From a virus (Duplodnaviria > Heunggongvirae > Uroviricota > Caudoviricetes): a stretch of DNA of 24,224 nucleotides. The stretch spans positions 1 through 24,224 of the IMG/VR virus record IMGVR_UViG_2548876940_000013; one strand, given 5' to 3'. A program made the position numbers and the translations under genes. Positions 2,196 to 19,213 of this stretch are shown here, piece by piece; the first letter of the stretch is position 1; every line of letters starts with the position of its first letter. The notes under the pieces were generated by a model. It did not search any database and had not been told where the DNA came from. It was given only the letters and a program-made list of their open reading frames with translations.

Positions 2196-2655
2196 TTACC
2201 ACCCCACCAGCCTCTTTAAATCGGGCAATCAGGTCACCGATTTTATGTTCATACTGACCGTAACCTGCACCGGGTAATGAAGCCCATATATTGCTGCAAC
2301 GGTCGATTGCCTGACGAATATCGCCGCTATCAATCATAGGTAAAGCGCCACGCTCTTTAATCTGCTGCAATGCCACTGCGTCCTGGCTTTTGGGGGAGAA
2401 GTCTTTCAAACCAAGCTGTTTACGGTAAGCATCCCACCAACGGGAAAGAAGCTGGTAACGTCCGGCGGCTGTTGATTTGAGTTTGGAGTTTAGCTTGACA
2501 AGTTTGCGAGGGTGATCGGAGTAATCAGTGAAGAGTTCTCCACCGACAATAACGTCATAACCGTGGTTACGTGTCGGTTGTCGCCCGTTATCCGTTCCCT
2601 CTGACCATGCCACCATATCCAGGAAAGCTTTACGCTGGGAATTTAGTACCTGCAT
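2179..2655 (-). CDS. R: Endolysin, lambda R-type lytic transglycosylase
   Basis: Translation closely matches lambda R as recalled (QRKAFLDM-AWSEGTDNGRQ-TRNHGYDVIVGGELFTDYSDHPRKLV...AGRYQLLSRWWDAYRKQLGLKDFSPKSQDAVALQQIKERGALPMID). Strong SD aaggag upstream of the ATG. Confidence 0.9.
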   Translation of the reverse strand: MQVLNSQRKAFLDMVAWSEGTDNGRQPTRNHGYDVIVGGELFTDYSDHPRKLVKLNSKLKSTAAGRYQLLSRWWDAYRKQLGLKDFSPKSQDAVALQQIKERGALPMIDSGDIRQAIDRCSNIWASLPGAGYGQYEHKIGDLIARFKEAGGVVNEVEL

Positions 2656-2658
2656 AAA

Positions 2659-2985
2659 TTACTCCTTAGAGCCACCAAACTTATTACCGATTACTCTCAT
2701 TGCAGCCCCACGAATAGCATCGACCCCGATCAGCCCAACGCCGCCACCAATGGCAACAGAAAGAGATTTAGGCCATCCGACATACTCAAGAGCGGATGCA
2801 AAAGTCAGCGTCAGAGCACCACAGAGCAAAATCTCGAGCGTTTTTCGTTTCCAGCCACCACCACCGCCAAAATAGGCAATGCGCAAGCCAGCCATAACGA
2901 TCGACATAATCACTGCGCCCAGCGGTGTGTCTCCACGCCACCAGCTCTGGAACAACTCCAGCCAGGTATTTGGGTTATGAGGCAT
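2659..2985 (-). CDS. Holin (three-TM type)
   Basis: 108 aa with three hydrophobic helices and a charged C-terminus; immediately upstream of R with its stop 1 nt before the R start. Confidence 0.75.
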   Translation of the reverse strand: MPHNPNTWLELFQSWWRGDTPLGAVIMSIVMAGLRIAYFGGGGGWKRKTLEILLCGALTLTFASALEYVGWPKSLSVAIGGGVGLIGVDAIRGAAMRVIGNKFGGSKE

Positions 2986-3124
2986 TTGTAGTTATCTCTC
3001 ACCTCGCTGATACAGCAGGTGCAAATTGAGGGAACATCATGTACAGCAAATTAGAAGCGGAAACGTCAAAGAAGCCGAACCAATGGATAACTGCGAAATA
3101 GACCAGGACCAACGAATCCCCAGC

Positions 3125-3160
3125 CCCAGAAACGACAAAACCCGCTCGACGGCGGGTTTA
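3125..3160 (-). terminator. tR-prime-like terminator of the short late leader transcript
   Basis: 8-bp GC stem aaacccgc / gcgggttt (3138-3145 / 3152-3159) with a 6-nt loop, followed on the - strand by the T-rich tgtcgtttctgg. Lies between the Q-proximal cargo and the holin, as in lambda pR-prime/tR-prime. Confidence 0.4.
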
Positions 3161-3169
3161 AGCTGTGTG

Positions 3170-3270
3170 GCGAAGTAACCACTCTTAACACGATACAATA
3201 ATTTTTGCGTACGCGTTAGCGTTTTTGTAAGATTAACAAATAAATCGAAAAATCATAATCGGATGATTTC
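3170..3270. promoter_or_regulatory. AT-rich divergent control region: candidate late promoter/Q-utilisation site (- strand) and promoter of the cargo cassette (+ strand)
   Basis: Roughly 100 bp AT-rich, non-coding on both strands, located between the tR-prime-like hairpin and the start of the 3271 gene. No confident -35/-10 assignment. Confidence 0.3.
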
Positions 3271-4293
3271 ATGGCAAAATTAAATGCTAGCGAAAGACTC
3301 GTTACTCATCATAGTCTGACCATTGACACAAAGTTTAGAACCAAGGCAACACAAGAGGTAAAAGCCCAGTGTATATGTCCTGTTCCGGAAATGTACATGC
3401 TTGCCCCATTGATTGTTAAACAAAAGGGACTCGTTCATTCATATGATTCTGGGAATATTGTAGTTACTCTCCAAGATGTACAACTTTATCCTTTACTTCC
3501 AGATAACTCACCCACGCATATTGTCCTTCTTATTAATAGTGTTGATAAAAATGGAAGTACTACCGTTGTAAAAAATATAAATACTAATGAACGCGTTGAA
3601 ATCCAACCAAAATATGAACAAGGTGAAGGCTATGAAGTTTCTACCTATGTTGTCATATCATTAAATGGAAATAAAAGAACCTATGATATGATTTGTACAT
3701 CTACCCCAGGTGTATCTACGGCCCGGTTAAATAGTTTTTTAGACAAAATTCTCTTTGAAGTGGCGAAAGACAATGAAGACTTATTTACCGCAAAACATCC
3801 AACTAACGTTATTTCTGCAACATCAAAAAAAGAAGTAAAAATACGATACAAACCAATATTTGAATTTACAGGAATGTTAGACAAGGAGCTTTTTAATAAA
3901 ATAAGCCAAAAAGGATTATCAGATGTCATATTAGTCAAGGATCAATTCGGAACAATTAATGCTCCTGATGTTAATTCACCTTACATTCCGACTGAAAGTA
4001 CATTAAAATTACTTCCAAATCATGGTGACAATGTTATTGGATGGATTAAAAATGTAGCATCTCATTTCAATAAAAAAATGAATGGTGGTTATGATAAATT
4101 AAAGGTTAAATTCCAAGATCCTGAAACAAATAAACCAAGGCAGGTTGATTTCAAAACCTCAAACATCAATCTTAATAATTTAGAAAAAACATTTATTAAG
4201 AAAAGCATTATCGATAACTTTAATTCGCGCCTGAAGGATTCATATGTTAAAATTGAACTAGAGTTTGTTGTGAAAATGATAGATTTGATGTGA
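3271..4293 (+). CDS. Hypothetical 340-aa soluble protein, first gene of the Q-lysis cargo cassette (candidate defence/abortive-infection component)
   Basis: Clean 340-aa ORF with ATG start, visibly AT-rich, antisense to the late operon. Lys/Asn-rich; no motif I recognise. Confidence 0.6.
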   Translation: MAKLNASERLVTHHSLTIDTKFRTKATQEVKAQCICPVPEMYMLAPLIVKQKGLVHSYDSGNIVVTLQDVQLYPLLPDNSPTHIVLLINSVDKNGSTTVVKNINTNERVEIQPKYEQGEGYEVSTYVVISLNGNKRTYDMICTSTPGVSTARLNSFLDKILFEVAKDNEDLFTAKHPTNVISATSKKEVKIRYKPIFEFTGMLDKELFNKISQKGLSDVILVKDQFGTINAPDVNSPYIPTESTLKLLPNHGDNVIGWIKNVASHFNKKMNGGYDKLKVKFQDPETNKPRQVDFKTSNINLNNLEKTFIKKSIIDNFNSRLKDSYVKIELEFVVKMIDLM

Positions 4294-4300
4294 GGTTATT

Positions 4301-4885
4301 ATGCCAATACTTTCAGTTTTCTCTCATCTAGGCAAGCCGTTTGGATATCTTTTTATTAAAGGTATTAGCGGCAAAGCTGCATATGATTGGGTAGCACCAA
4401 TTCTACTTACTTCTATCACAGCAGTACTTTTCATTCTATTAAAAATCCCTGTCAAAGATTTATTTGATGACAATGGTTTCATTAAATCAATCGTTTCATT
4501 TATCTCTAACCTACCAGGGTTTTATATTGCCGCTCTGGCCGCCATAGCAACTTTCAATAGAGCTGAGATTGATTTACCATTGATTAGCAATGAAAGAAAT
4601 GCCTCTATTGAAATAAAAGTAACAAAAGAAAATGGAAAAGTAGTAAATTCAGAGGAGGTTCTGACCAGACGATTATTTCTTTGCATGCTATTCTCTTTTT
4701 TAACAGCATTAAGCATTGTTATAATAATACTTAATGCTATATTTTCACCATTAATCAATGTCTATCAAAACAGTATTGTTTTAATGGTTTATACTGTTGT
4801 ATTTACTTTCCTAGTTTGGCAACTCTTAGTATCAACTTTCTTTGGATTATATTATCTCGGAAACAGAATTCATATGAATTATTAA
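4301..4885 (+). CDS. Hypothetical 194-aa integral membrane protein (about four TM helices), second gene of the cargo cassette
   Basis: ATG 7 nt after the stop of the upstream gene, with the SD gagg overlapping that stop (operon). Four hydrophobic segments, roughly aa 30-50, 60-85, 125-148 and 159-186. Confidence 0.6.
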   Translation: MPILSVFSHLGKPFGYLFIKGISGKAAYDWVAPILLTSITAVLFILLKIPVKDLFDDNGFIKSIVSFISNLPGFYIAALAAIATFNRAEIDLPLISNERNASIEIKVTKENGKVVNSEEVLTRRLFLCMLFSFLTALSIVIIILNAIFSPLINVYQNSIVLMVYTVVFTFLVWQLLVSTFFGLYYLGNRIHMNY

Positions 4886-4906
4886 GCCCTACAGGGGCTT
4901 AATAAT
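4879..4906. other. Perfect 11-bp stem hairpin spanning the convergent stop codons of the cargo cassette and Q
   Basis: ttattaagccc-taca-gggcttaataa. The stops of the 4301-4885 gene (+) and of Q (-) lie 3 nt apart inside this structure. No U-tract on either side. Confidence 0.4.
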
Positions 4907-5239
4907 CAACAAAATACCTTCAATCACTCCTATTGCTGCTTGAAGTTGTTTTCTGATTGACCCGTCAGAGCATTTCCGTTTCTTTGCTATTGAACGGAGT
5001 GAAATACCGATAACAAAGTGAGCAATGATCAGTTCATATTCTTCTGGCTTATATTTCCGCAATCGCGCAACACAGCTGTCAATCATGATTCCTTCATCAT
5101 CATCGCATTGTTGGCGTATTTTCTTTCCATGAGGTAGTAAACCTTTAAACCCTGCAGCAACAGGCTGCCAGTCCACACCACTGTTATCTGCTGCAGCCCA
5201 TGCTCCCCAGCGGTCCAATACTTCATACATATCACGCAT
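4889..5239 (-). CDS. Late-gene antitermination protein Q (QuuD-like)
   Basis: Motifs VLDRWGAWAA, GFKGL and a Cys/His-rich centre, as recalled for DLP12-type Q. Track start is TTG at 5254; the ATG at 5239 has the SD ggagaagg. Located directly upstream of the lysis cassette. Confidence 0.7.
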   Translation of the reverse strand: MRDMYEVLDRWGAWAAADNSGVDWQPVAAGFKGLLPHGKKIRQQCDDDEGIMIDSCVARLRKYKPEEYELIIAHFVIGISLRSIAKKRKCSDGSIRKQLQAAIGVIEGILLIIKPL

Positions 5240-5256
5240 CAACCTTCTCCACAAAA

Positions 5257-6252
5257 TCAGGCCAGCACGCCAATTGTCAGCGCACGATCGATAAAACGAA
5301 ATATCAGCTCCAGCTGGGAGCCATACTTCTCTTCAAATGCCACGGTATCCGCATGCAGCTCGTCGTGATGCTTTCTGCACAAAGGCAACACAAAGAGATC
5401 ATGCGCTTTTGTACCCATTCCACCCTGACCGTGGCCTATCAGGTGGTGGGGATCATCAGCGGGCTTTCCACAACATGCACACGGCTGTGTCTTAACCCAG
5501 CGCGTGTACTTTTCATTAACCCAGCGGCGACGTTTTGGGCGTAACATAAAAGACTCCGGCGACTCCGGATCCACTTTCAGCGCCAGCACCTTTTTCGCCT
5601 TATCCTGGATGATGCTGGTGGCAGGAACCGAAGGCACAAGGTCACTTTCCCGGGAGACAGACGGCACAACAGGCTTCGGTAATCTCAGTGCCTTACGGGC
5701 TGCACTTTCCGGTAAGGCATCCGCCAGGTCATTACGAATCAGCCACCAGCACAGTTCCGGCATTGTCACAACGTGACTATCATCAAAACCGAGATCCCGA
5801 CGCACAACAGACAACACCCAGCGGGCACAGTTATCCGTTGCCATTGATTCCAGCCGTTCCGTGAACTGATCGCGCAGCTGGTTATCGCAGTGCCAGCACA
5901 GACGGATTGCGCCCGGAGCGTGTCGCATTGTGGTCATGTTCTCGCTGTGCCAGTCGGAATGAGGCCACTGACAGCCTTTTTCACGAAGTAACCAGCTTTC
6001 AAGACATTCCACGCCACCAGCACGACGGATCACTGCCTCATTGCGGAACACGGCCCGAACGGCAGGATCATCCGCCAGCGGTTGTGATGCCGCCGGAACG
6101 GCACCGCTGGCGAAAGATGAATAACGTTCCGGCTCAGGCTCCAGCAGGACACGCCCCTGCATAAACAAGGGCATCAGCTCTGAACCTGGCCTGAACAATA
6201 CGATCCCCATACGCGGGGCAATTTCAGGGGTCAGTAGTGCTCTCACGGTCAC
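5257..6252 (-). CDS. DUF968/YdfU-like phage protein
   Basis: 331-aa ORF with a C-terminal Cys/His-rich HNH-like motif CACCGKPADDPHHLIGHGQGGMGTKAHDLFVLPLCRKHHDELH. nin-region position. Start ambiguous (GTG 6252 or ATG 6210). Confidence 0.55.
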   Translation of the reverse strand: MTVRALLTPEIAPRMGIVLFRPGSELMPLFMQGRVLLEPEPERYSSFASGAVPAASQPLADDPAVRAVFRNEAVIRRAGGVECLESWLLREKGCQWPHSDWHSENMTTMRHAPGAIRLCWHCDNQLRDQFTERLESMATDNCARWVLSVVRRDLGFDDSHVVTMPELCWWLIRNDLADALPESAARKALRLPKPVVPSVSRESDLVPSVPATSIIQDKAKKVLALKVDPESPESFMLRPKRRRWVNEKYTRWVKTQPCACCGKPADDPHHLIGHGQGGMGTKAHDLFVLPLCRKHHDELHADTVAFEEKYGSQLELIFRFIDRALTIGVLA

Positions 6253-9575: not shown

Positions 9576-10162
9576 GCGTTAGTTTCTCCACAACCAGAAG
9601 CAATCGACGCCACGACGCCCGGAGCTGCACACTCGCGGGCGTCATTACTTTCTGAAATGCAAAAAATTTTGTAGACAAGTGCTGCATGCTCCTGCAGCTT
9701 CGAAATTGAGAGATACAGCTCGTCGTTAATTGCTGTCTTCTCATGCGGTTCCACTACGCCGTCTTCGATTGCTGAACGAATCTGTTTTGAATAACTGCCG
9801 ATCTGTTCAATGACTTCCAGCAGACGCTGGTTAATATCGGCGTTGTCCACATCCTCGACGTCAGGAAGAGACACAAAGACGCCATTTGCAGACTGCGCCA
9901 CAGCATCAGCAATGAAGTGAGTGCCACCAGCACGCTGTAAAACCATTGCCCATCCCAGCGGGAAAATCTGATCGCCATCTGCACGAAGGCGGTTGAATAA
10001 AGCGTTCTCTGTTACATCCAGCCAGTCAGCGGCTTCAGCGTAACCCCCCGGCAACGCCGCGATAGTTTTTCTGACAGCTTTCACGTACCACTCAGGCTGT
10101 TTTTCTATTTTCCAGTGATGCTTACCCACGGCTATCTCCTTAAAACTGTGGTTACTTTTCAT
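9572..10162 (-). CDS. Hypothetical early regulatory protein (CII/YdaT-position)
   Basis: Occupies the slot after the cro-like gene. The track start (TTG 10234) overlaps the cro-like gene, so the ATG at 10162 is preferred. No motif recognised. Confidence 0.4.
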
Positions 10163-10400
10163 CTGATGAATCTTTAATCTTTTGAAAAATATCTGGACGT
10201 AATTTTTCTTTTGATATGCCAGTGGTCTTTTCAATGAATATCGAGAGCTTTGCAGGGGGACGCTTTTCTCTGTTCAACCAGTTCCAGACATGTTGTTGCT
10301 TTACTAAATGACCGCTGCTGGCTGTGAGCTTCCGAGCCAATTCTGATTGACCACCAGCCAGAGCGATTGCCTCCGATAAGGCTAATTGCTCAGGTGTCAT
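10152..10400 (-). CDS. Cro/YdaS-like HTH regulator
   Basis: 82 aa with the HTH ALAGGQSELARKLTASSGHLVKQQHVWNW. Strong SD aaggagaaa. Divergent from the CI-like repressor across an operator-containing spacer. Confidence 0.7.
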   Translation of the reverse strand: MTPEQLALSEAIALAGGQSELARKLTASSGHLVKQQHVWNWLNREKRPPAKLSIFIEKTTGISKEKLRPDIFQKIKDSSDEK

Positions 10401-10535
10401 AGCTTTCTCCTTTTTTGGTAGTTAAGTTGTTACGAGCTGCAAGAATACAACATTAACAACTTTTACCACAACTTTTAGGTGTTGGAAAGCTAAAACATAA
10501 AGTTGTAACCTCATCAAAAAAGAGAGGGATATGTT
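10401..10535. promoter_or_regulatory. OR-like divergent promoter/operator region between the cro-like and CI-like genes
   Basis: 135-bp spacer with repeated acaactttt units and the inverted copy aaagttgt (caacttttaccacaacttttaggtgttgg ... cataaagttgtaacc). Confidence 0.5.
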
Positions 10536-11222
10536 GTGAAAACACTGGCAGAACGATTAAAGATAGGTAGAGAGAAAGCTGGCATGAGCCAAGCTCAACT
10601 AGCTGAAAAAATTGGACTTTCACAACAATCTGTAGCCAAAATAGAGAATGGCGAAACTCTACAACCGCGCAAAATTAAAGAAATTGCAAAAGTTTTAGGT
10701 GTATCACAAAAGTGGTTACAACTTGGTATTGAAGACAACGCATCCATACCTGATCTTGTTGTAAAAGAAGCAGAAAGCACCGCATTAGACCCCGATATTT
10801 TCGTAAACATTCCTGTTTTAGATGTCGAGTTATCGGCAGGTAACGGATGTCTGGCTGAAATAGTTGAATCAGCTATTGACTGGTTTCCGTTAAGAAGAGC
10901 AGATTTGAGAAAATCTGGCGTATGTGCATCTAATGCCAAGATCGTACAAATATGGGGGAACAGTTTATTACCGGTTCTCAATAATGGAGATCTTGTTGCC
11001 GTTGATATTTCTCAAACCGTTCCTATTCGTGATGGCGATCTTTATGCCGTACGAGATGGTGTATTGCTAAGGGTTAAAATACTTATCAACTTACCTGACG
11101 GTGGCTTGATTCTTAGAAGCTTCAACAAAGATGAGTACCCAGATGAAATACTCACCTTTGAAGATAGACGAGCCAGAATTCATGTTATAGGTAGGGTATT
11201 CTGGTCATCGCGAACTTGGTAA
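10536..11222 (+). CDS. CI-like prophage repressor (XRE-type HTH plus S24 LexA-like peptidase domain)
   Basis: N-terminal HTH (MSQAQLAEKIGLSQQSVAKIENGE) and C-terminal S24 fold with Ser (GNSLLPV) and Lys (LRVKIL) in the expected places. GTG start with SD agagaggg. Confidence 0.85.
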   Translation: MKTLAERLKIGREKAGMSQAQLAEKIGLSQQSVAKIENGETLQPRKIKEIAKVLGVSQKWLQLGIEDNASIPDLVVKEAESTALDPDIFVNIPVLDVELSAGNGCLAEIVESAIDWFPLRRADLRKSGVCASNAKIVQIWGNSLLPVLNNGDLVAVDISQTVPIRDGDLYAVRDGVLLRVKILINLPDGGLILRSFNKDEYPDEILTFEDRRARIHVIGRVFWSSRTW

Positions 11223-12095
11223 TGCATCGAAAAGCATTTCTTCAGAAATAATTTTAAGTTTTGCACCATTATCATCCCTATAAGATATAGCCTTTTCGAT
11301 CTTCCTTCCGTGACTAGAGAATTTCCAATCACGGGAGGAAAGCGTCCCAATTACTAAAAAATCCAACTTTTGAGTAATTCCACTACTGATGTTCCCACCA
11401 GCATTTTTAATCAAATTTTCAACTACGGCTCTCTTTCCTGCAACAAAAGTGCCTGTAAGACAATAGGTTTTACCCTCTAACTCTATCGAAGCCCCTACAT
11501 CAATAGGCAGCCTGGTCGCCAAACCATCCACCACCCCACTTTCCAAGTCACATCCTGTGAAGTCTACTAATGCCTTATGTAGAGTTAAACTCTCATCTTC
11601 AGTAATAACACCATCTTTAAGAATTTCCTTTACAAGTGCATAAAGTTTTTTTCCTGGGTAGTTGTTCTTCAAAGCTCCATTTTGCTCAAGCCACCAATTA
11701 AGATATCTTATTTCTTCTTGAGTTAAGTTCCGATCAGCAATTAATCCTTTACATAGTCCATTAAGTAAATGGACATCTACATCCTTGGAGTAAAAATCAA
11801 TTTCAGGGATATCAAGAATTTCCCTCTGTATTTGGAGAAGACTATTTTTAAGGTCATCACGTTCTTCTGATGTGATTATTCCATCCACAAGAATATCCGA
11901 CACCCGTGCAGATAGACTTTTTATAACTCCATTATTGATAATCTGCTTTGCTTCAAGTAACCATGTATCTAAGTAAAGAACCTCCTCTTCACGGACAACT
12001 CCATCTGCAATGATTCCATCAATGATGCTAATCAAGTTAGCAAATAACTTGTCCCGGTTCTGTGTGTAATTAAAAGCGTAAAGCGCGTCTTCCAT
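11205..12095 (-). CDS. TerB-like-repeat / BRCT-domain protein in the immunity region (candidate exclusion/defence factor)
   Basis: C-terminal BRCT signature GKTYCLTGTFVAGKRAVVENLIKNAGGNISSGITQKLDFLVIGT...KLKIISEEMLFDAL, as in the LigA BRCT. N-terminus has four repeats of about 38 aa with the motif [IL]xDG[IV][IV]TxEE. ATG at 12095 with SD aaggagg; track start is GTG 12125. Confidence 0.7.
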   Translation of the reverse strand: MEDALYAFNYTQNRDKLFANLISIIDGIIADGVVREEEVLYLDTWLLEAKQIINNGVIKSLSARVSDILVDGIITSEERDDLKNSLLQIQREILDIPEIDFYSKDVDVHLLNGLCKGLIADRNLTQEEIRYLNWWLEQNGALKNNYPGKKLYALVKEILKDGVITEDESLTLHKALVDFTGCDLESGVVDGLATRLPIDVGASIELEGKTYCLTGTFVAGKRAVVENLIKNAGGNISSGITQKLDFLVIGTLSSRDWKFSSHGRKIEKAISYRDDNGAKLKIISEEMLFDALPSSR

Positions 12096-12300
12096 ACAAC
12101 CTCCTTTTTTTGATAATCCTTGCACTCCTTGGCTACTCGTTCAAACCACATAAAGTTGTTGACAACATTCAAAACCACAACTAAATTACAACTTAAAGGT
12201 GTTAAGACAACGAACAGGCAGGACGCCCACGAAGTAGCCGCTTGGGGCATATGAAGTCCAGGATGATTCGTTGAGTCATGTTGTGCCACTAGGCACTCAT
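12096..12300. promoter_or_regulatory. OL-like operator/promoter region (candidate pL driving + strand early-left genes, with a divergent promoter for the BRCT gene)
   Basis: Contains the near-palindrome aaagttgttgacaac and the motif acaacttaaaggtgtt, which match the units in the cro/cI spacer. Confidence 0.4.
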
Positions 12301-12319
12301 GTTAAAGCAGGTGTATGAA

Positions 12320-12595
12320 ATGAAAGTCCAGATTTTAAACAATAACTGTGAAGTCGTTTGGTCATACGACATAGCCGCCCCTGTAGATCAGAGCGGCGAT
12401 AGCTGGACCAATGGGAAACATCAGATTATGGCTGGAGTTGTGTTCTCTTTACGCCGTGCTTTGGAACAGGCTGAAGTATTTCCATCAGACCCTGAATGGA
12501 AATGGCCTTTTTCTATTTGTCCAAATTCGGAGAGCACATTTCAGAAAATTGGTCAGAAAGTCGCACTCGAAGAGCATCAGCCAACTGTTTCCTGA
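12320..12595 (+). CDS. Hypothetical early-left protein
   Basis: ATG at 12320 with SD aggtg; the track start at 12299 has no SD. The 3-prime end overlaps a - strand ORF, so one of the two may be spurious. Confidence 0.4.
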   Translation: MKVQILNNNCEVVWSYDIAAPVDQSGDSWTNGKHQIMAGVVFSLRRALEQAEVFPSDPEWKWPFSICPNSESTFQKIGQKVALEEHQPTVS

Positions 12596-12758
12596 TTTTT
12601 TCAGGTAACTCGTCGGCATCGCAGAAACAACAACGCTCGATCATGTTGAAAGCCGATTCGTAGAACTGTTTCTGCTGAGTGTCGCTGAGACAGGAAAAGA
12701 GCGACGTTACGATGATTTTATTAATTGCATTATCAAATTCTTTTTCATCAAAAGTCAT
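12513..12758 (-). CDS. Hypothetical small protein
   Basis: 81-aa ORF with SD aaggaaa before the ATG. Product looks protein-like (acidic, Cys motif CCFCDADE). Confidence 0.35.
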   Translation of the reverse strand: MTFDEKEFDNAINKIIVTSLFSCLSDTQQKQFYESAFNMIERCCFCDADELPEKIRKQLADALRVRLSDQFSEMCSPNLDK

Positions 12759-13011
12759 TTGATTTTCCTTTTATGTATACGGGCTTAAAAGGATACCACC
12801 GAGCCTGAAGTGGTGAAAAGACAGGCACATAACAGCTAAGTATTTTCAACCAAAGAGAATCCTTAGCGTTGTGGTGAATGCGGCTCAGCGCACGCGGGTT
12901 AAGGTTGAGGCTGACAGTCGACCTTCTGTGGATACCCACCCGCCTGGTGTGCAACCTTCGCCAGGCACCGGGAGGCACCCGGCACCACAACTTTATGCTG
13001 TGTGTAGTCTT

Positions 13012-13068
13012 GGCGGTACCAGCTTGTACCCTTGCTTCCGGCTGGTACCGTCCTTTTTACAAAACAGA
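13012..13068 (+). terminator. Strong hairpin with a downstream T-run (candidate early-left terminator/attenuator)
   Basis: 10-bp stem cggtaccagc / gctggtaccg around a 17-nt loop, followed by tcc-ttttt. Lies in a GC-rich stretch with no convincing ORF. Confidence 0.4.
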
Positions 13069-15168: not shown

Positions 15169-15414
15169 ATGCTTCAAATGCTGACACTTGAGGAATGGGC
15201 TGCGGAAAAATTTAGGAGTAATCCTCCAAGTGTGTCCACATTGCGCCGTTATGCTAAGCAGAATTTATTTTGTCCACCGGCAATGAAACAAGGTCGACTA
15301 TGGCGAGTGCGTGAGGACGCAGAGTTAGTTGGGGAATTAGTTACCCCTGTCATCAAGAAAAGTGATTCTATTATTCTACAAAGGATTTTAAGTAATGGCA
15401 GCCAGACCACGTAA
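15169..15414 (+). CDS. xis: Excisionase (lambda Xis-like)
   Basis: MLTLEEWAAEKFRSNPPSVSTLRRYAKQNLFCPPAMKQGRLWRVRED parallels lambda Xis (MYLTLQEWNARQRRPRSLETVRRWVRECRIFPPPVKDGREY). The 3-prime end overlaps the int start. Start could be 15154, 15169 or 15178. Confidence 0.75.
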   Translation: MLQMLTLEEWAAEKFRSNPPSVSTLRRYAKQNLFCPPAMKQGRLWRVREDAELVGELVTPVIKKSDSIILQRILSNGSQTT

Positions 15415-16522
15415 AAATAATGTTTCAGTCCCGAACTTGTATCCGCTCTATAGCAGAAAAGTAAATAAAGTCTATTGGCGATATAAGCATCCAGTGACCG
15501 GGAAGTTTCATTCTTTGGGCACAAACGAAGCTGAAGCCATTGCCATTGCCACTGAGGCCAATACACGCCTGGCTGAGCAAAGAACCCGGCAGATTCTGGC
15601 TATCAGTGACAGGATCGCAACCAACAAAGGAAAAGCAATCACAACGTCAACCTGGTTAGATCGCTATCAAGCAATCCAGGATGACAGACTGAAAAGTGGC
15701 GATATAAAGCTCAACACCTATAAACAGAAAGCCAAACCAGTATCCTTGCTCAGGGAACGAGCAGGACTGAAGTTAATTTCAGCCGTTGATGTCAGGGATA
15801 TAGCCCAGTTGCTTGACGAGTATATCGCCGCCGGACAGCCGAGAATGGCGCAAGTAGTTCGCTCCGTCCTGATTGATGTTTTCAAAGAGGCACAGCACTA
15901 CGGAGAAGTACCTCCTGGCTATAACCCGGCATTAGCTACTAAACAGCCAAGAAGAAAAATTACACGACAGCGGCTAAGTCTTGAAGAATGGCAAAAAATC
16001 TTTGATATCGCAGATGCCAGTCATCGCTACATGGGAAATGCCATGCTGCTAGCATTGGTTACTGGTCAGCGGTTAGGTGATATTTCACGTATGAAATTTA
16101 GCGATATTTGGGATGATCATCTTCACGTCATCCAGGAAAAAACCGGGAGCAAAATCGCCATCCCGCTTTCTCTTCGTCTCAACGCGATTAACTGGAGTTT
16201 ACGCGATGTAGTCGCCCGCTGCCGTGACTATGCAGTCAGCCCATACCTTGTACATTTTTTCCGTACTACTTCACAAGCTGAACGTGGCGCGCAGGTTAAA
16301 TCCAATACATTGACCATGAATTTCAGTAAAGCGAGGGATTTAGCAGGAATTGACTGGGGTGATGGCTCACCCGCAACATTCCATGAACAAAGGTCTTTAT
16401 CTGAACGTCTGTACAAAGAACAGGGGTTAGACACACAAAAACTGCTTGGTCATAAAACGCAACAACAAACCGATCGTTATCATGACGATCGCGGCAAAGG
16501 ATGGAGCAAAGTAGCGTTGTGA
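15395..16522 (+). CDS. int: Lambda-family tyrosine integrase
   Basis: 375 aa collinear with lambda Int: arm-binding N-terminus (NLYPLYSRKVNKVYWRY), ALVTGQRLGDISRMKFSDI, KTGSKIAIPLS, and the C-terminal HEQRSLSERLY...LLGHK...YHDDRG with the catalytic Tyr region. Confidence 0.95.
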   Translation: MAARPRKNNVSVPNLYPLYSRKVNKVYWRYKHPVTGKFHSLGTNEAEAIAIATEANTRLAEQRTRQILAISDRIATNKGKAITTSTWLDRYQAIQDDRLKSGDIKLNTYKQKAKPVSLLRERAGLKLISAVDVRDIAQLLDEYIAAGQPRMAQVVRSVLIDVFKEAQHYGEVPPGYNPALATKQPRRKITRQRLSLEEWQKIFDIADASHRYMGNAMLLALVTGQRLGDISRMKFSDIWDDHLHVIQEKTGSKIAIPLSLRLNAINWSLRDVVARCRDYAVSPYLVHFFRTTSQAERGAQVKSNTLTMNFSKARDLAGIDWGDGSPATFHEQRSLSERLYKEQGLDTQKLLGHKTQQQTDRYHDDRGKGWSKVAL

Positions 16523-16744: not shown

Positions 16745-19213
16745 CTATGATTTAGGTAAGTACTGTTTTAGTTTGTCAATAAATTGATCGATCTCTGCAG
16801 AAGTGAGTTCTGTTAGCTCACGTTTGCATATACCTACTGCCTCATCAAATCTCGAAGTTAAAGTTAACCAAATAGCTTTAAACCTTATAAAACTGCCGTA
16901 TGTTTGAGATTTAGGTGAATCAGTTTTTTCAAGAATTCCAATAGCATACTCTAATTTATCAATTCTTTTATATTGTATAGCTAGGTCACAGAGCGTTAAA
17001 ACAGGATATTTTATATCAGGAAAGTCCATGATCCCATTTTCAATTAGGGTAAATGATTCATCAACTTTATTATCAAACCTAGCAAGTGCCTTAGCTTTGG
17101 CGGAGCAATAAATTTCCTGTGCGCGTTGGGCTTGATTCGATTTTAGTCGTTCAAGTATATCCTCTACTAAACCTGGTTCAATATGTGAATCATCCTTGTA
17201 AAAAAGGCAGTTTAAATAATTATTAGCATTTATTGGATTATTTTTCTGCCTTTCATAAACTTCCTTCGCCAATCCCAAAGCAAGTTCGTGCTCATCATTC
17301 TGTAAATACAACAATACCAGTTCACTTTTTGAACGGTGGTCATTAGGTCTTTGCCTTAAAACTCGCTTATAGCTCTCAATTGCCCGAGAACGTTGGCGTG
17401 TTATTCTAAAATAAAAACCATGCAGGAATGAACTTTCTGGTTCAGGAACATCTCGTACCGCATTAAAAAACTCTCGATCATGCAGTCTTGCTAGAGACTG
17501 GCATTTCATAAATAATATGTGTTCTATAACATTTGAATGCATATATTGAGCATTTGAAAGAATCTGATCAGCTAATCTCACAGCTTCTTTATAGTTCGCA
17601 GATCCACCTTTTTCGTATAATGATCTTATTGTTTTTACAAAATATGAAGGAACTAACACTCGACTATCTATATCTTTACCGGTTTTTATAGCCTCCTGAA
17701 TGGAGAAAATATATTCCGAAATATCCCTATTGTTGTCTGTATATTCTTCAATGAACTTCTTAATATGCTTACTCAAAACATCATCATATTCACTGGTGGT
17801 TCCAAACTTACTTCTTGATATGTAATCCTGTATTACTTGGTTTACCCTGATATAATCATTATTCACACCTAATTGATCACATACAGACATATTGATGAAG
17901 TTTTGCGTAATTGGATAAAACTCCACTTCATCTACTAATGAAAAAAGGAACTCATAGCTAATGAATTCAAATTTTGAAAGGAAATATAAAAAATCTAACT
18001 TACGCTGATCATGGGAAAAACTTTCAACTATTACTTTTGCCTTATCATCAGCATATTCTCTTATTAAATGTGAATCTTTTTTCACTGAATAAAGGTTCGT
18101 ATCCGATATACTATCCACGGCAAAAAGAACTTGCTCTGGATAACCCGAAAGTAGGTCTGAGAAAAAACGCAGATCTTCAGGGCATAAATCTAAACCTTTA
18201 TATGTTGCATATCTTTTCAAAAGCCCTCGTCTTTCTTGAGTATTCAATTCAGGAATTTCTTCAAAGTAATACTCTGGATTTCTATAAGAAAATGTTTTAT
18301 TACCTCTAAACTTAGATGCTATACAGAAAGTCAAGTGACCATAATGTTTAATATGATCTGTAATCCTTACAAACCAACTTACAATTGTACTATCAGGTTG
18401 AACTATAGCTCCTTTATCTTCAATTAGGATTCGTTCTTTTTCTTCTATAATTCCTTCTATAAGCTTTACCGCAATATTAACTTTATCACTTATTGAAGTG
18501 GTCATTAAATCATGAATTTTACCAATATCGCATAAGCCAAGATCATTTATTTTTAAGATAAAGTCTTCTATACTATCTGAAGACTCGATTTGTATTATAG
18601 GAAATTCATAAGACTCTCTTATAGCATTAGATTTTATAAGAGCGTTCTTCATAAAAGATTTACGGCCAATTGAATCCAAACCTGAAGCAATAAAAACTAC
18701 AGGAGGAGATTTATCAAAGTCATCAAAACGTTGCTCAACGTTAGTCGTTTTCTCATTTCTACCCACAAATATTTTTTGTCTTTCTTTCAATGCAGGATGG
18801 GTTTTAAATGCAATCTCTCGTAGTCGAGCATTAATTTTTCTAATTGCAACGTTAGGCTTCCGAATTGGCTGAATATTAAAACCTTCCTTCATCCAGGATG
18901 GGACCCTTGGATCTGTAAAAGTTATTTTGTCATCTATTATAATTGGATAAATACGTTGCAGATGACCATCCTCTACTTTTTTCTTTGCTAAGCGCATTTC
19001 CTCTTTAACCCAATCAGACTCTAATGCAGAATCAGAAAGAAATAAAACAAAAAGAGATGTATCATCTAGCCCCTTTAATATTTCCTCTGATGGGGACATG
19101 CCTTTTTCAAAAGTCTGCTCATCGAAAATTCTAGTTTCTTTGCGAAGCCCTGAAGCAACAACTCGTACATAGTCCTTGTCTTTTGAACTATGTGAAAGAA
19201 AACATTTTATCAT
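16745..19213 (-). CDS. TIR-domain protein with a central NTPase-like region and C-terminal TPR-like repeats (STAND/NLR-like antiviral candidate)
   Basis: N-terminal TIR motifs (CFLSHSSKDKDYV; LFVLFLSDSALESDWVKEE with a candidate catalytic Glu). Middle region with a degenerate P-loop (FIASGLDSIGRKS) and a Walker-B-like ERILIED about 75 aa later. C-terminal roughly 300 aa of helical TPR-like repeats. Visibly AT-rich; sits between int and the icd-derived arm. Confidence 0.8.
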   Translation of the reverse strand: MIKCFLSHSSKDKDYVRVVASGLRKETRIFDEQTFEKGMSPSEEILKGLDDTSLFVLFLSDSALESDWVKEEMRLAKKKVEDGHLQRIYPIIIDDKITFTDPRVPSWMKEGFNIQPIRKPNVAIRKINARLREIAFKTHPALKERQKIFVGRNEKTTNVEQRFDDFDKSPPVVFIASGLDSIGRKSFMKNALIKSNAIRESYEFPIIQIESSDSIEDFILKINDLGLCDIGKIHDLMTTSISDKVNIAVKLIEGIIEEKERILIEDKGAIVQPDSTIVSWFVRITDHIKHYGHLTFCIASKFRGNKTFSYRNPEYYFEEIPELNTQERRGLLKRYATYKGLDLCPEDLRFFSDLLSGYPEQVLFAVDSISDTNLYSVKKDSHLIREYADDKAKVIVESFSHDQRKLDFLYFLSKFEFISYEFLFSLVDEVEFYPITQNFINMSVCDQLGVNNDYIRVNQVIQDYISRSKFGTTSEYDDVLSKHIKKFIEEYTDNNRDISEYIFSIQEAIKTGKDIDSRVLVPSYFVKTIRSLYEKGGSANYKEAVRLADQILSNAQYMHSNVIEHILFMKCQSLARLHDREFFNAVRDVPEPESSFLHGFYFRITRQRSRAIESYKRVLRQRPNDHRSKSELVLLYLQNDEHELALGLAKEVYERQKNNPINANNYLNCLFYKDDSHIEPGLVEDILERLKSNQAQRAQEIYCSAKAKALARFDNKVDESFTLIENGIMDFPDIKYPVLTLCDLAIQYKRIDKLEYAIGILEKTDSPKSQTYGSFIRFKAIWLTLTSRFDEAVGICKRELTELTSAEIDQFIDKLKQYLPKS

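Follow-up and report, generated by a model that had tools for sequence, protein, structure and literature searches.

A lambdoid immunity module with candidate operators on both sides of cI and a convergent BRCT gene

The window analysed here, a stretch of viral DNA of 24,224 nucleotides, carries two short regions built from similar sequence units, one between the divergent cro-like and cI genes and the other 5′ of a gene encoding a BRCT-domain protein. This raises the question of whether the two regions are the right and left operators (OR and OL) of one immunity module and, if so, whether the BRCT gene enclosed by them is controlled by the CI repressor. From the observed motif enrichment, conservation, geometry and homology we infer CI binding, the transcription start sites and the sign of regulation. 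Positions 10401-10535 and 12096-12203 are very probably the right and left operator regions of a single module, as judged from sequence, and direct CI control of the BRCT gene appears plausible. The account as a whole, namely a cro / OR / cI / BRCT / OL module of an E. coli lambdoid prophage in which CI would be permissive or stimulatory for the BRCT gene, is one for and against which we see an even balance.

Repressor, Cro and the shared dyads

The cI product combines HTH_3 (E 1.4e-15) and Peptidase_S24 (E 1.1e-14) Pfam domains (Table 1). The best PDB match of its N-terminal domain by phmmer was the 434 repressor (1per/2or1; E 3.4e-14, 65 residues ungapped), with which it shares QQS at the start of the recognition helix; the domain also matches 434 Cro, and the recognition helix with QQS is conserved in seven relatives. 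No repressor in 50,697 phage records was more than 45% identical to CI. The operators, promoters and boundaries given here, defined in silico, belong to an immunity type that lacks close relatives in those records. The cro-like gene, conserved in all relatives, is the first of the rightward (minus-strand) lytic operon and is separated from the divergent cI gene by a 135-bp spacer with sites in it, which Cro may share.

Table 1. Genes, predicted promoters and candidate operators of the module and its flank
Feature	Coordinates	Strand	Description
cro-like gene	10152..10400	-	82 aa; YdaS-family HTH (Pfam YdaS_toxin, E 7.8e-15)
OR-c	10424..10430		lone conserved half-site AAGTTGT; about +5 to +11 of predicted PR transcript
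PR (predicted)	10442..10471	-	-35 TTGTGG (10471..10466), 18-bp spacer, -10 TATTCT (10447..10442); start ~10435
OR-a (candidate operator)	10468..10482		ACAACTTTTAGGTGT; 12/14 to consensus
PRM-like cI promoter (predicted)	10482..10511	+	TTGGAA-18-TAACCT; 7/12 to consensus; start ~10518
OR-b (candidate operator)	10492..10506		AAAACATAAAGTTGT; 12/14 to consensus, same score as OR-a
cI	10536..11222	+	228 aa; HTH_3 + S24 peptidase repressor (Pfam)
BRCT gene	11205..12095	-	296 aa; convergent with cI, 18-bp overlap
P_BRCT (predicted)	12116..12144	-	-35 TTGAAC (12144..12139), 17-bp spacer, extended -10 TGc-AAGGAT (12124..12116)
OL-2 (candidate operator)	12145..12159		ACCACATAAAGTTGT; 12/14 to consensus
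pL (predicted)	12159..12187	+	near-consensus, TTGACA-17-TAAATT; 10/12; predicted start ~12194-12195
OL-1 (candidate operator)	12188..12202		ACAACTTAAAGGTGT; 13/14 to consensus; covers predicted pL start
pL leader	12210..12271	+	structured, conserved 5′ leader of pL transcript; no operator

The initial annotation had reported ACAACTT / AAAGTTGT units and a motif ACAACTT(n2-3)AGGTGTT in both regions. A sequence check found the units where it had placed them: ACAACTT or its complement occurs at 10424(-), 10456, 10468 and 10500(-) in the cro/cI spacer, and at 12153(-) and 12188 5′ of the BRCT gene, while the longer motif lies at 10468-10483 and 12188-12203, each with n=2. The bounds it gave for the spacer (10401-10535) are also correct, and the BRCT open reading frame starts at 12095 (ATG, minus strand). 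An exact 12-mer that it had missed, ACATAAAGTTGT, has its sole occurrences in the whole window at 10495 and 12148, and ACAACATT (10447/12162) and CCACAACT (10466/12175) are further sequences common to both regions. The shared units proved to be half-sites of a 15-bp dyad, ACAACTTnAAGTTGT.

ACAACTT is found 12 times in the window, compared with 4.45 ± 2.0 expected (none of 100 shuffles reached 12), and six of these copies fall in the two short regions. The dyad ACAACTTNAAGTTGT, with up to two mismatches, is found five times compared with 0.13 expected (no shuffle among 100 reached five), and four of the five matches are the pairs 10468/10492 (OR) and 12145/12188 (OL). The fifth, at 12987-13001, was taken as chance because it lies inside an STnc100/DicF-like sRNA, is present in the heteroimmune phage SfV and is absent in locus L002. 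At this threshold each region holds only two dyads, the remaining units being lone half-sites; the three adjacent dyads per region of the lambdoid switch type were not found.

OR-a overlaps the predicted PR -35 by 4 bp, and its centre (10475) lies at about -43 from the predicted PRM start; OR-b sits within the PRM spacer, an OR3-like position, at a centre-to-centre distance of 24 bp (24 bp in enterobacterial loci and 25 in the Providencia/Proteus group). Among 27 unique OR sequences, the PR -10 reads TATAAT (18), TATTCT (five), TACAAT (two), TATATT or TATGAT, with T-A...T kept, and the PRM -35 TTGGAA is invariant (27/27), combined with a -10 of TAATCT, TAACCT, TAGTCT or TAGGCT. The PR spacer contains two lone half-sites, ACAACAT (10447) and ACAACTT (10456). 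OR-c reaches 2.0 bits per position in the same 27 sequences, with low-information flanks, and the left half of its would-be dyad (10416-10422) is unconserved.

On the left side, the plus-strand pL that had been proposed is upheld in silico as a near-consensus promoter, conserved in all relatives and bracketed by dyads of the same consensus, OL-1 at its predicted start and OL-2 adjoining its -35. All 49 loci keep a distance of 43 bp between OL-2 and OL-1. In the Providencia/Proteus group OL-2 is a perfect ACAAC...GTTGT, and in L002, L004 and L007 OL-1 has its weak half in the place of the strong one and vice versa (ACACCTTAAAGTTGT), which shows dyad symmetry. A lone conserved half-site, ACAACTA (12177-12183), abuts the pL -10; like those at 10424, 10447 and 10456, it is outside a simple dimer-per-dyad model.

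Two candidates were rejected. The near-palindrome AAAGTTGTTGACAAC, to which the initial annotation had drawn attention, is indeed present at 12152-12166, but an operator role could not be retained because its right arm is not kept in relatives (TGACATGG, TGACTTTG); it is the right half-site of OL-2 running incidentally into the pL -35 TTGACA, and the ACAACATT unit at 12162 was rejected along with it. A G/A covariation at dyad position 12 between OR-a and OL-1, which had seemed real when this window was compared with L001, was dropped because mixed combinations (L016, L091) show that this position is merely tolerant, and no covariation between OR and OL was found there.

Conservation and boundary of the module

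All 42 related viral contigs and four other genera repeat the order cro / OR / cI / BRCT / OL, with CI identities of 57-100%, although these relatives are not phylogenetically independent. All 42 OL-bearing viral contigs have CI and BRCT (or a deletion remnant of it) at fixed offsets. The same gene order and sites were found in Providencia, Proteus, Serratia and a contig labelled Pseudomonas (CI 57-71%), and in these four non-E. coli loci the dyad (up to two mismatches) occurs at OR and OL only, whereas the E. coli loci L001 and L003 have one extra match inside the sRNA-like region. The common consensus and fixed positions across the 42 contigs and four genera bear out, in silico, the earlier proposal that the two regions are OR and OL of one module. 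Among 5426 E. coli genomes, cI with OR was found in 71 and the region upstream of the BRCT gene in 72, the genomes listed for the two largely coinciding. The frequency of this immunity type in complete E. coli genomes is about 1.3%, and several other Enterobacterales carry it as well. Strains with the prophage include E. coli NRZ14408 and SCU-124, O91 RM7190 and STEC strains.

Two sets of matches were set aside. A "BRCT-less" allele, carried by about 24 E. coli genomes, of which FDAARGOS_1058 is an example, was first read as a sign that OL moves with cI independently. It proved to be a deletion inside the BRCT gene, both ends being kept, and thus gives no independent evidence. Of 120 viral-contig matches to an OL 16-mer, most were not OL and were discarded; the majority of those discarded share a common flank, TACATCAACATAAAGTTGTTGAC..., in environmental contigs and seemingly represent one unrelated conserved sequence, and the remainder look like chance.

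Homology to heteroimmune phages begins at 12204-12207, only 1-4 bp past OL-1, which on the sequence looks like a typical module boundary. SfV, used as a negative control, shares its own different motif between the equivalent OR and OL positions, which fits an immunity module exchanged as a unit and with operators specific to the type of repressor. The pL leader beyond the boundary is present in 45 phage records and its hairpin, at 12241-12262, covaries. It has no Rfam family, and its covariance model had no match in HK022 positions 22000-30000, a range that may lack putL.

The BRCT gene, its predicted promoter and the role of CI

The BRCT protein (PHROG 3989, E 5.7e-128) comprises nine N-terminal helices with DG-x5-E repeats and a C-terminal BRCT domain (PF00533, residues 206-290, E 1.1e-6), a DNA-end-binding type of domain. 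Its AF2 model (pLDDT 81) gave Foldseek matches to BRCT domains only, and the modelled C-terminal domain resembles those of RFC1, LigA and XRCC1. With PADLOC, the sole match was weak and partial, covering residues 119-251, to the candidate PDC-S48 (E 8.7e-7). The BRCT-plus-helical-repeat protein has 353 homologues, and our literature search on the gene (orf2 of phage K139 included) found nothing about this module or protein. This conserved gene was always found with this repressor in the relatives examined, and its predicted promoter shares an operator with pL.

That promoter, P_BRCT, had been placed inside the OL-like region. A conserved divergent promoter abutting OL-2 was recovered, but its core lies beside the shared motifs and not inside them; we consider its position probable. 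Transcription would start at about 12109, giving a 14-nt leader that carries GGAGG. The information profile of 35 unique sequences has a -35 island and a TGnAAnnAT island, separated by a low-information 17-bp spacer. The -35 is TTGATT in most relatives, and the -10 variants AAGGAT, AACTAT and AAAGAT differ only at -10/-9, while three single variants (AAGGGT, TAGGGT and TAACCA) alter other positions, including the -7 T. P_BRCT and PRM each fit seven of 12 consensus positions, and both fall under the threshold of the promoter scanner.

The geometry of these two predicted promoters is alike: each is weak, with an operator at about -43 abutting its -35, and the distance from operator centre to first -10 base is 31 bp at both (10475 to 10506 at PRM and 12152 to 12121 at P_BRCT). 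OR-a plus the PRM -35 forms with the P_BRCT -35 plus OL-2 a 20-nt inverted repeat of 75% identity. No conserved operator was found within or downstream of the P_BRCT core in the 35 unique sequences. The operator at about -43, this empty core and the mirror image of the cI promoter together point to permissive or positive control in the lysogen rather than shut-off, and we tentatively favour, a little short of an even balance, that CI permits or activates P_BRCT instead of repressing it. A likeness between the cI and BRCT leaders amounts to an A-run and a Shine-Dalgarno sequence in this lineage only, and was not counted as evidence.

The preferred mechanism would run as follows. A 434-type CI with QQS and an S24 self-cleavage domain would bind the 15-bp dyads. 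At OL-1, which covers the predicted pL start, it should block pL. OL-2 lies exactly between pL and the weak divergent P_BRCT, with its centre (12152) at about -43 relative to the predicted start of P_BRCT and at about -42 relative to that of pL; as this is the mirror image of the placement of OR-a at the weak cI promoter, CI bound to OL-2 would be compatible with P_BRCT activity and probably stimulatory. On this view lysogens would produce the BRCT protein alongside CI, and the support by CI would be lost on induction. A bolder form, to which we give less credence, is that CI is a two-site activator whose mirror-image operators at about -43 switch on both cI and BRCT while PR and pL are blocked, making BRCT an obligatory lysogen-specific partner of CI. 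We know of no description of such an OL-side copy of PRM in lambdoid switches. If this form is true, the BRCT protein would not be a passenger but might act, for example, in superinfection defence or DNA-damage sensing. Activation of P_BRCT by CI would in itself be a clear case of an accessory gene driven directly by the repressor of its prophage, and would offer a handle on the role of this protein family in lysogens.

An operator touching a -35 could instead repress, as direct repressor control, suggested in the initial annotation, would imply. P_BRCT would be shut off by CI at OL-2 (and OL-1), and expression of the BRCT gene might be early and confined to infection or induction. OL-2 abuts the predicted -35, overlapping it by 1 bp if the hexamer is read as TTTGAA, and a CI pair across OL-2 and OL-1 (43 bp, about four turns) could distort the whole divergent promoter region. 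However, the cI promoter, which has to be active with CI in place, shows the same geometry, and no conserved operator lies in or downstream of the P_BRCT core; moreover, the K139 homologue directly follows cI in an annotated lysogenic operon and the Pseudomonas phage homologues lie in accessory regions adjoining the integrase, so that we regard shut-off as unlikely. Quite unlikely, too, is that BRCT is a constitutive or otherwise regulated accessory gene, served for instance by minus-strand read-through, to which the proximity of OL-2 is of no regulatory consequence. P_BRCT is weak by consensus, a minus-strand ORF (12513-12758, PHROG 3311) lies upstream in the same direction, and accessory genes of immunity regions often carry their own signals. 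Yet the bipartite -35 / extended -10 footprint keeps a fixed distance from OL-2 in the 35 unique sequences. Read-through cannot be a general source, since the DNA to the right of OL in relatives holds different, mostly plus-strand genes, and in L001-lineage loci a terminator-like hairpin with a T-run stands at the end of the upstream minus-strand gene, before OL is reached.

The shared motifs might also not be CI operators at all: Cro alone, or another factor, might bind them, or they might be conserved promoter architecture dating from an ancient OR-to-OL duplication. Cro is conserved in all relatives as well, and the direct orientation of lone half-sites misfits a simple dimer model. Against this, the half-site starts with ACAA, as do the operators that the 434 repressor recognises through its QQS helix, the dyads are symmetric, their halves changing places from one lineage to another, and in heteroimmune SfV another shared motif occupies the equivalent places. 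The site positions relative to PR, PRM and pL also resemble those in the lambda and 434 switches. This reading seems very improbable to us.

Comparison with known switches

On the early-left side, Shigella phage SfV has the same structured leader, early-left genes (orf33, yfdP/Q/R-like) and sRNA/terminator downstream of pL, and a pL TTGACA at a similar distance from the leader. In contrast to the present module, SfV has a different repressor with GTACC-type operators, a terminator separates its cI from pL, and no BRCT gene is present.

The 434 operators have the form ACAAT-N4-ATTGT (PMC1636474). The module resembles that of 434 in the N-terminal domain of CI, for which the 434 repressor is the closest solved homologue with identical QQS, in operators that begin with ACAA and end with TTGT around an AT-rich and presumably uncontacted centre, and in divergent cI and cro around OR with a second operator set at pL. 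The sites are, however, 15 bp long (ACAAC-N5-GTTGT) instead of 14; the outer ACAA/TTGT is kept but as ACAA-N7-TTGT in every locus, and the 14-bp ACAA-N6-TTGT of the 434 type was not found. In place of three dyads per region there are two clear ones plus lone half-sites, the OL dyads are not adjacent but stand 43 bp apart and flank pL, and a conserved BRCT gene with its own predicted promoter lies between cI and OL.

An accessory gene embedded beside cI is also known from lambda (rexAB) and from Vibrio phage K139 (cI-orf2-glo-int). K139 orf2 encodes a full-length BRCT homologue (33% identity, 95% coverage) and directly follows cI, ahead of glo and int and downstream of the GenBank-annotated PL of the lysogenic operon, whose mapped start is upstream of cI. 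Unlike in both, the BRCT gene here is convergent with cI and has its own predicted promoter at OL, without co-transcription from the cI promoter.

In lambda, CI at OR2 (centre at about -42) activates PRM via sigma-70 region 4. Like lambda PRM, the predicted cI promoter is weak with an operator at about -43 touching the -35, and the predicted P_BRCT mirrors it; the divergent predicted starts are 83-85 bp apart, compared with 82 in lambda. An acidic residue, E24 in helix 2 of the CI HTH, can be aligned by eye with lambda D38 and may correspond to it (E/D in six of seven relatives, V in L004). Unlike in lambda, this PRM arrangement is duplicated at OL, where it would serve a non-repressor gene.

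Predicted operator dyads and the CI repressor

The window is an E. coli prophage, matching E. coli chromosomes such as NRZ14408 at 100% identity over 10100-12400. Gene calls confirmed the coordinates of the initial annotation, which had described shared operator-like motifs in the cro/cI spacer (OR) and upstream of the BRCT gene (region B) (see table). All of the motifs that it quoted were found, and the two regions also have in common ACAACATT, CCACAACT and the exact 12-mer ACATAAAGTTGT, present in the 24 kb only at 10495 and 12148. ACAACTT occurs 12 times compared with 4.45 ± 2.0 in shuffles (0 of 100 reached 12), an enrichment far beyond chance, and six of the copies fall within the two short regions.

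Features of the cI module and its predicted control elements (window positions)
Feature	Position	Strand	Description
cro-like gene	10152-10400	-	YdaS-family HTH
cro/cI spacer	10401-10535		135 bp
OR-a	10468-10482		dyad ACAACTTTTAGGTGT
OR-b	10492-10506		dyad AAAACATAAAGTTGT
PR (predicted)	TTGTGG (10471..10466), 18 bp, TATTCT (10447..10442)	-	TATAAT in most relatives
PRM (predicted)	TTGGAA (10482-10487), 18 bp, TAACCT (10506-10511)	+	weak cI promoter
cI	10536-11222	+	CI-type repressor, HTH_3 and Peptidase_S24
BRCT-domain gene	11205-12095	-	296 aa, convergent with cI
Non-coding region	12096-12319
P_BRCT -10 island (predicted)	12124..12116	-	TGnAAGGAT
P_BRCT -35 island (predicted)	12144..12139	-	TTGATT; TTGAAC in the window
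OL-2	12145-12159		dyad ACCACATAAAGTTGT
pL (predicted)	TTGACA (12159-12164), 17 bp, TAAATT (12182-12187)	+	10/12 to consensus
OL-1	12188-12202		dyad ACAACTTAAAGGTGT
Early-left genes	from 12320	+	yfdP/Q/R-like, xis, int (15395-16522)

Site definition was made possible by fetching diverged relatives: the E. coli alleles L001 (FDAARGOS_1058) and L002, species-representative loci from a contig labelled Pseudomonas lundensis and from Providencia, Proteus and Serratia (CI 71-57% identical), and viral contigs gathered by a scan for the invariant OL 16-mer. On alignment of OR with OL, the 'acaactt' units proved to be halves of a 15-bp dyad, ACAACTTnAAGTTGT, with four good copies in the window (OR-a, OR-b, OL-2 and OL-1), OR-b equalling OR-a in consensus match. 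With up to two mismatches there are five matches against 0.13 expected, a number reached in 0 of 100 shuffles. At this tolerance the dyad is confined to OR and OL in L002 and in the four diverged species-representative loci (L004-L007), and the related loci L001 and L003 each add a single match, which falls within the sRNA-like region. OL-2 is a perfect ACAACATAAAGTTGT in Providencia and Proteus, and OL-1 in L002, L004 and L007 is ACACCTTAAAGTTGT, in which the strong and weak halves of the window site have changed places, as would be expected of a true dyad. The near-palindrome reported upstream of the BRCT gene turned out to be incidental; ACAAC at 12096-12100 belongs to the Shine-Dalgarno/start region, and is not conserved in the alignment of relatives.

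The conserved lone half-sites at 10424-10430, 10447, 10456 and 12177 are not accommodated by a model of one dimer per dyad. Two of these, ACAAC at 10456-10462 (for OR-a) and 12177-12183 (for OL-1), lie 11-12 bp upstream of the dyad in direct orientation, a recurring three-half-site arrangement for which a simple dimer-per-dyad model gives no account. Separately, AAGTTGTAACC (OR-b right half plus PRM -10, 10500-10510) recurs inverted, without mismatch over its 11 nt, within the coding sequence of cI (10714-10724), where the copy includes an ACAACTT half-site at 10718; a chance origin within a 2-kb region is about an even prospect.

Residues 1-70 of CI have the phage 434 repressor as best PDB match (E 3.4e-14, 65 residues ungapped), followed by 434 Cro. 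The Gln-Gln-Ser at the start of the recognition helix is identical in CI and the 434 repressor and is kept in 7/7 relatives, with overall CI identity down to 57%; in 434 co-crystal structures, those glutamines read ACA. An acidic residue in CI helix 2, E24, aligns by eye with lambda D38. Phage 434 has three 14-bp sites in OR and three in OL, with outer bases ACAA...TTGT and the consensus ACAATNNNNATTGT (PMC1636474). Because Gln-Gln-Ser is shared with 434 and the 434 sites begin with ACAA, an ACAA-initial half-site is the expected target of this CI; the site here is 1 bp longer (ACAA-N7-TTGT). The predicted specificity is related to that of 434 yet distinct, and is not filed as 434 immunity; no repressor more than 45% identical to CI was found in 50,697 phage records. 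Cro probably shares the predicted operator sites.

Region B as the probable left operator of the module

The proposal that region B is the OL of the cI module, and with it the predicted OR/OL/pL arrangement, is supported by comparative evidence from co-occurrence, synteny, geometry, the module boundary and a control with the heteroimmune Shigella phage SfV. Of 5426 complete E. coli genomes, 71 have cI plus OR and 72 have region B, the listed records being largely the same ones. All 42 viral contigs with a true OL carry the BRCT gene (56-100% identical) or its deletion remnant; in those reaching far enough, CI (60-100%) is present too, as is Cro, and the offsets are fixed. Gene order is the same in four other genera. 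OL-2 and OL-1 are 43 bp apart in 49/49 loci, and OR-a and OR-b 24 bp (25 in the Providencia/Proteus group). In heteroimmune phages (SfV, SfII, SfIV, ST64B, mEp460 and others), similarity starts at 12204-12207, 1-4 bp past OL-1, which would mark the module boundary. SfV resembles the window in its leader, early-left genes and a TTGACA pL at similar distance, whereas the motif common to its OR and pL regions is GTACC-type, and no ACAACTT-type sites were found in these two regions; it serves as a negative control for the predicted OL.

About 16 nt past the predicted pL start begins a 62-nt structured leader (12210-12271, plus strand), conserved in 45 phage records of other immunities (SfV, SfII, SfIV, ST64B, mEp460, mEp237, ZF40 and others), where it is mostly unannotated and in a few overlaid by a 'hypothetical protein'. 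One of its hairpins shows compensatory changes at 3/5 pairs, and no Rfam family was found for the leader. As a strong terminator follows ~800 nt further on, the leader is a candidate element for antitermination or processing. Further along is an STnc100-like sRNA (12846-13061, plus strand; 42.4 bits, gathering score 47, E 1.3e-7) with a DicF-like 3' end, which by eye ends in a terminator-like stem, GGTACCAGC...GCTGGTACC, plus a T-run near 13015-13060. The operator-like 15-mer within it (12987-13001) was attributed to chance, since heteroimmune SfV has the same 15-mer.

ORFs 12320-12595 (plus strand, PHROG 3195) and 12513-12758 (minus strand, PHROG 3311) overlap by 83 nt; both are full-length matches to families of unknown function, and RefSeq annotates only the former. 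Just past the integrase gene, 16745-19213 (minus strand) encodes an 822-aa TIR plus TPR protein with an end-to-end match to the PADLOC TIR-NLR model (E 4.2e-167); given this position, it may be a gene for defence located either at the edge of the prophage or in flanking host DNA.

Predicted promoters and control of the BRCT gene

All four promoters are predictions. pL is the sole strong match in 10300-12400 and is conserved in all relatives. For a predicted start near 12194, OL-1 covers about -7 to +8 and, as a predicted operator, would be expected to prevent initiation. The last base of OL-2 is the first T of the pL -35, and the OL-2 centre lies at about -42. Conservation profiles of 27 unique sequences support PR and PRM, whose predicted starts are ~83 bp apart. 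OR-a overlaps the PR -35 by only 4 bp and is centred at about -43 from the PRM start, with OR-b within the PRM spacer, a placement that resembles OR2 and OR3 at lambda PRM.

The divergent BRCT promoter placed at OL by the initial annotation also draws comparative support, from conserved islands in fixed register. OL-2 lies 49 bp from the BRCT start codon, and on the minus strand of 35 unique sequences two conserved islands are separated by a 17-bp low-information spacer. The -10 variants AACTAT and AAAGAT differ only at positions -10 and -9, the least constrained of the sigma-70 -10 element, and the single variants AAGGGT, TAGGGT and TAACCA alter other positions, the -7 T among them. The pattern fits an extended -10 promoter with a predicted start near 12109 and a 14-nt leader with GGAGG. 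Because its -35 directly abuts OL-2, the OL-2 centre (12152) lies at about -43. The cI promoter and P_BRCT both have 31 bp between the operator centre and the first -10 base, 10468-10487 (OR-a plus PRM -35) and 12140-12159 (P_BRCT -35 plus OL-2) form a 75% inverted repeat, and the predicted P_BRCT and pL starts stand back to back ~85 bp apart; in this predicted layout OL is thus a structural copy of OR. Relatives carry different, mostly plus-strand genes to the right of OL, so BRCT transcription cannot in general come from upstream read-through.

The computation shows a single dyad consensus for the two operator regions, a fixed geometry and a 434-like reader, along with pL as a strong promoter and three others, weak or moderate, whose register with the sites is conserved. 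In the lysogen, CI on OL-1 and OL-2 would block pL. Direct CI control of the BRCT gene, as initially claimed, is plausible, with a sign probably opposite to what 'repressor control' suggests. Repression by CI is unlikely: the cI promoter, with the same operator geometry, must fire while CI sits on OR-a, and no conserved operator was found inside or downstream of the BRCT core promoter in the 35 unique sequences. That CI has no effect on the gene appears still less probable. Permissive or positive control is ranked above both, if tentatively; given the shared geometry, BRCT transcription would at least be able to proceed with CI at OL-2, and CI there may stimulate it, as happens at lambda PRM. 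Once CI is cleaved, the weak P_BRCT would probably lose out in competition with the strong pL, their -35s being 14 bp apart.

cI and the BRCT gene overlap by 18 bp (11205-11222), as they do in L002 (annotated) and L004-L007 (ORF calls); the one terminator-like hairpin close by (11173..11150, minus strand) is marginal. As the genes converge, RNAs started at the two weak promoters may extend antisense into one another.

The BRCT family and known switches

The BRCT protein belongs to PHROG 3989 (unknown function, E 5.7e-128) and has 353 homologues with E < 1e-5, the best 120 of which are mostly from Enterobacterales, none with a functional name. In its AF2 model (pLDDT 81), nine helices carrying DG-x5-E repeats precede a BRCT fold that matches the BRCT domains of RFC1, LigA and XRCC1; PADLOC returned a weak match to a candidate family only. 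In ~24 complete E. coli genomes, a module allele 84% identical has lost most of the BRCT gene by internal deletion (L001 3325-3460; also the related loci L020, L087 and L128), retaining the promoter, the start codon and the last ~40 codons, which indicates that the gene is dispensable for carrying the prophage.

Shorter homologues are found in Pseudomonas phages, in accessory regions beside the integrase. In Vibrio phage K139, an unrelated, P2-like phage, the full-length homologue orf2 (33% identity, 95% coverage) stands directly 3' of cI and before the exclusion gene glo and int (2280-5308 of the K139 locus); in the GenBank annotation, this lysogenic operon, cI-orf2-glo-int, is driven by the upstream PL, for which a start site has been mapped. 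This arrangement lends independent support to the BRCT family as a lysogeny function. The switch itself belongs to the lambda/434 kind, and the mirrored PRM-like promoter predicted at OL for a conserved BRCT gene is the sole feature that could be new.
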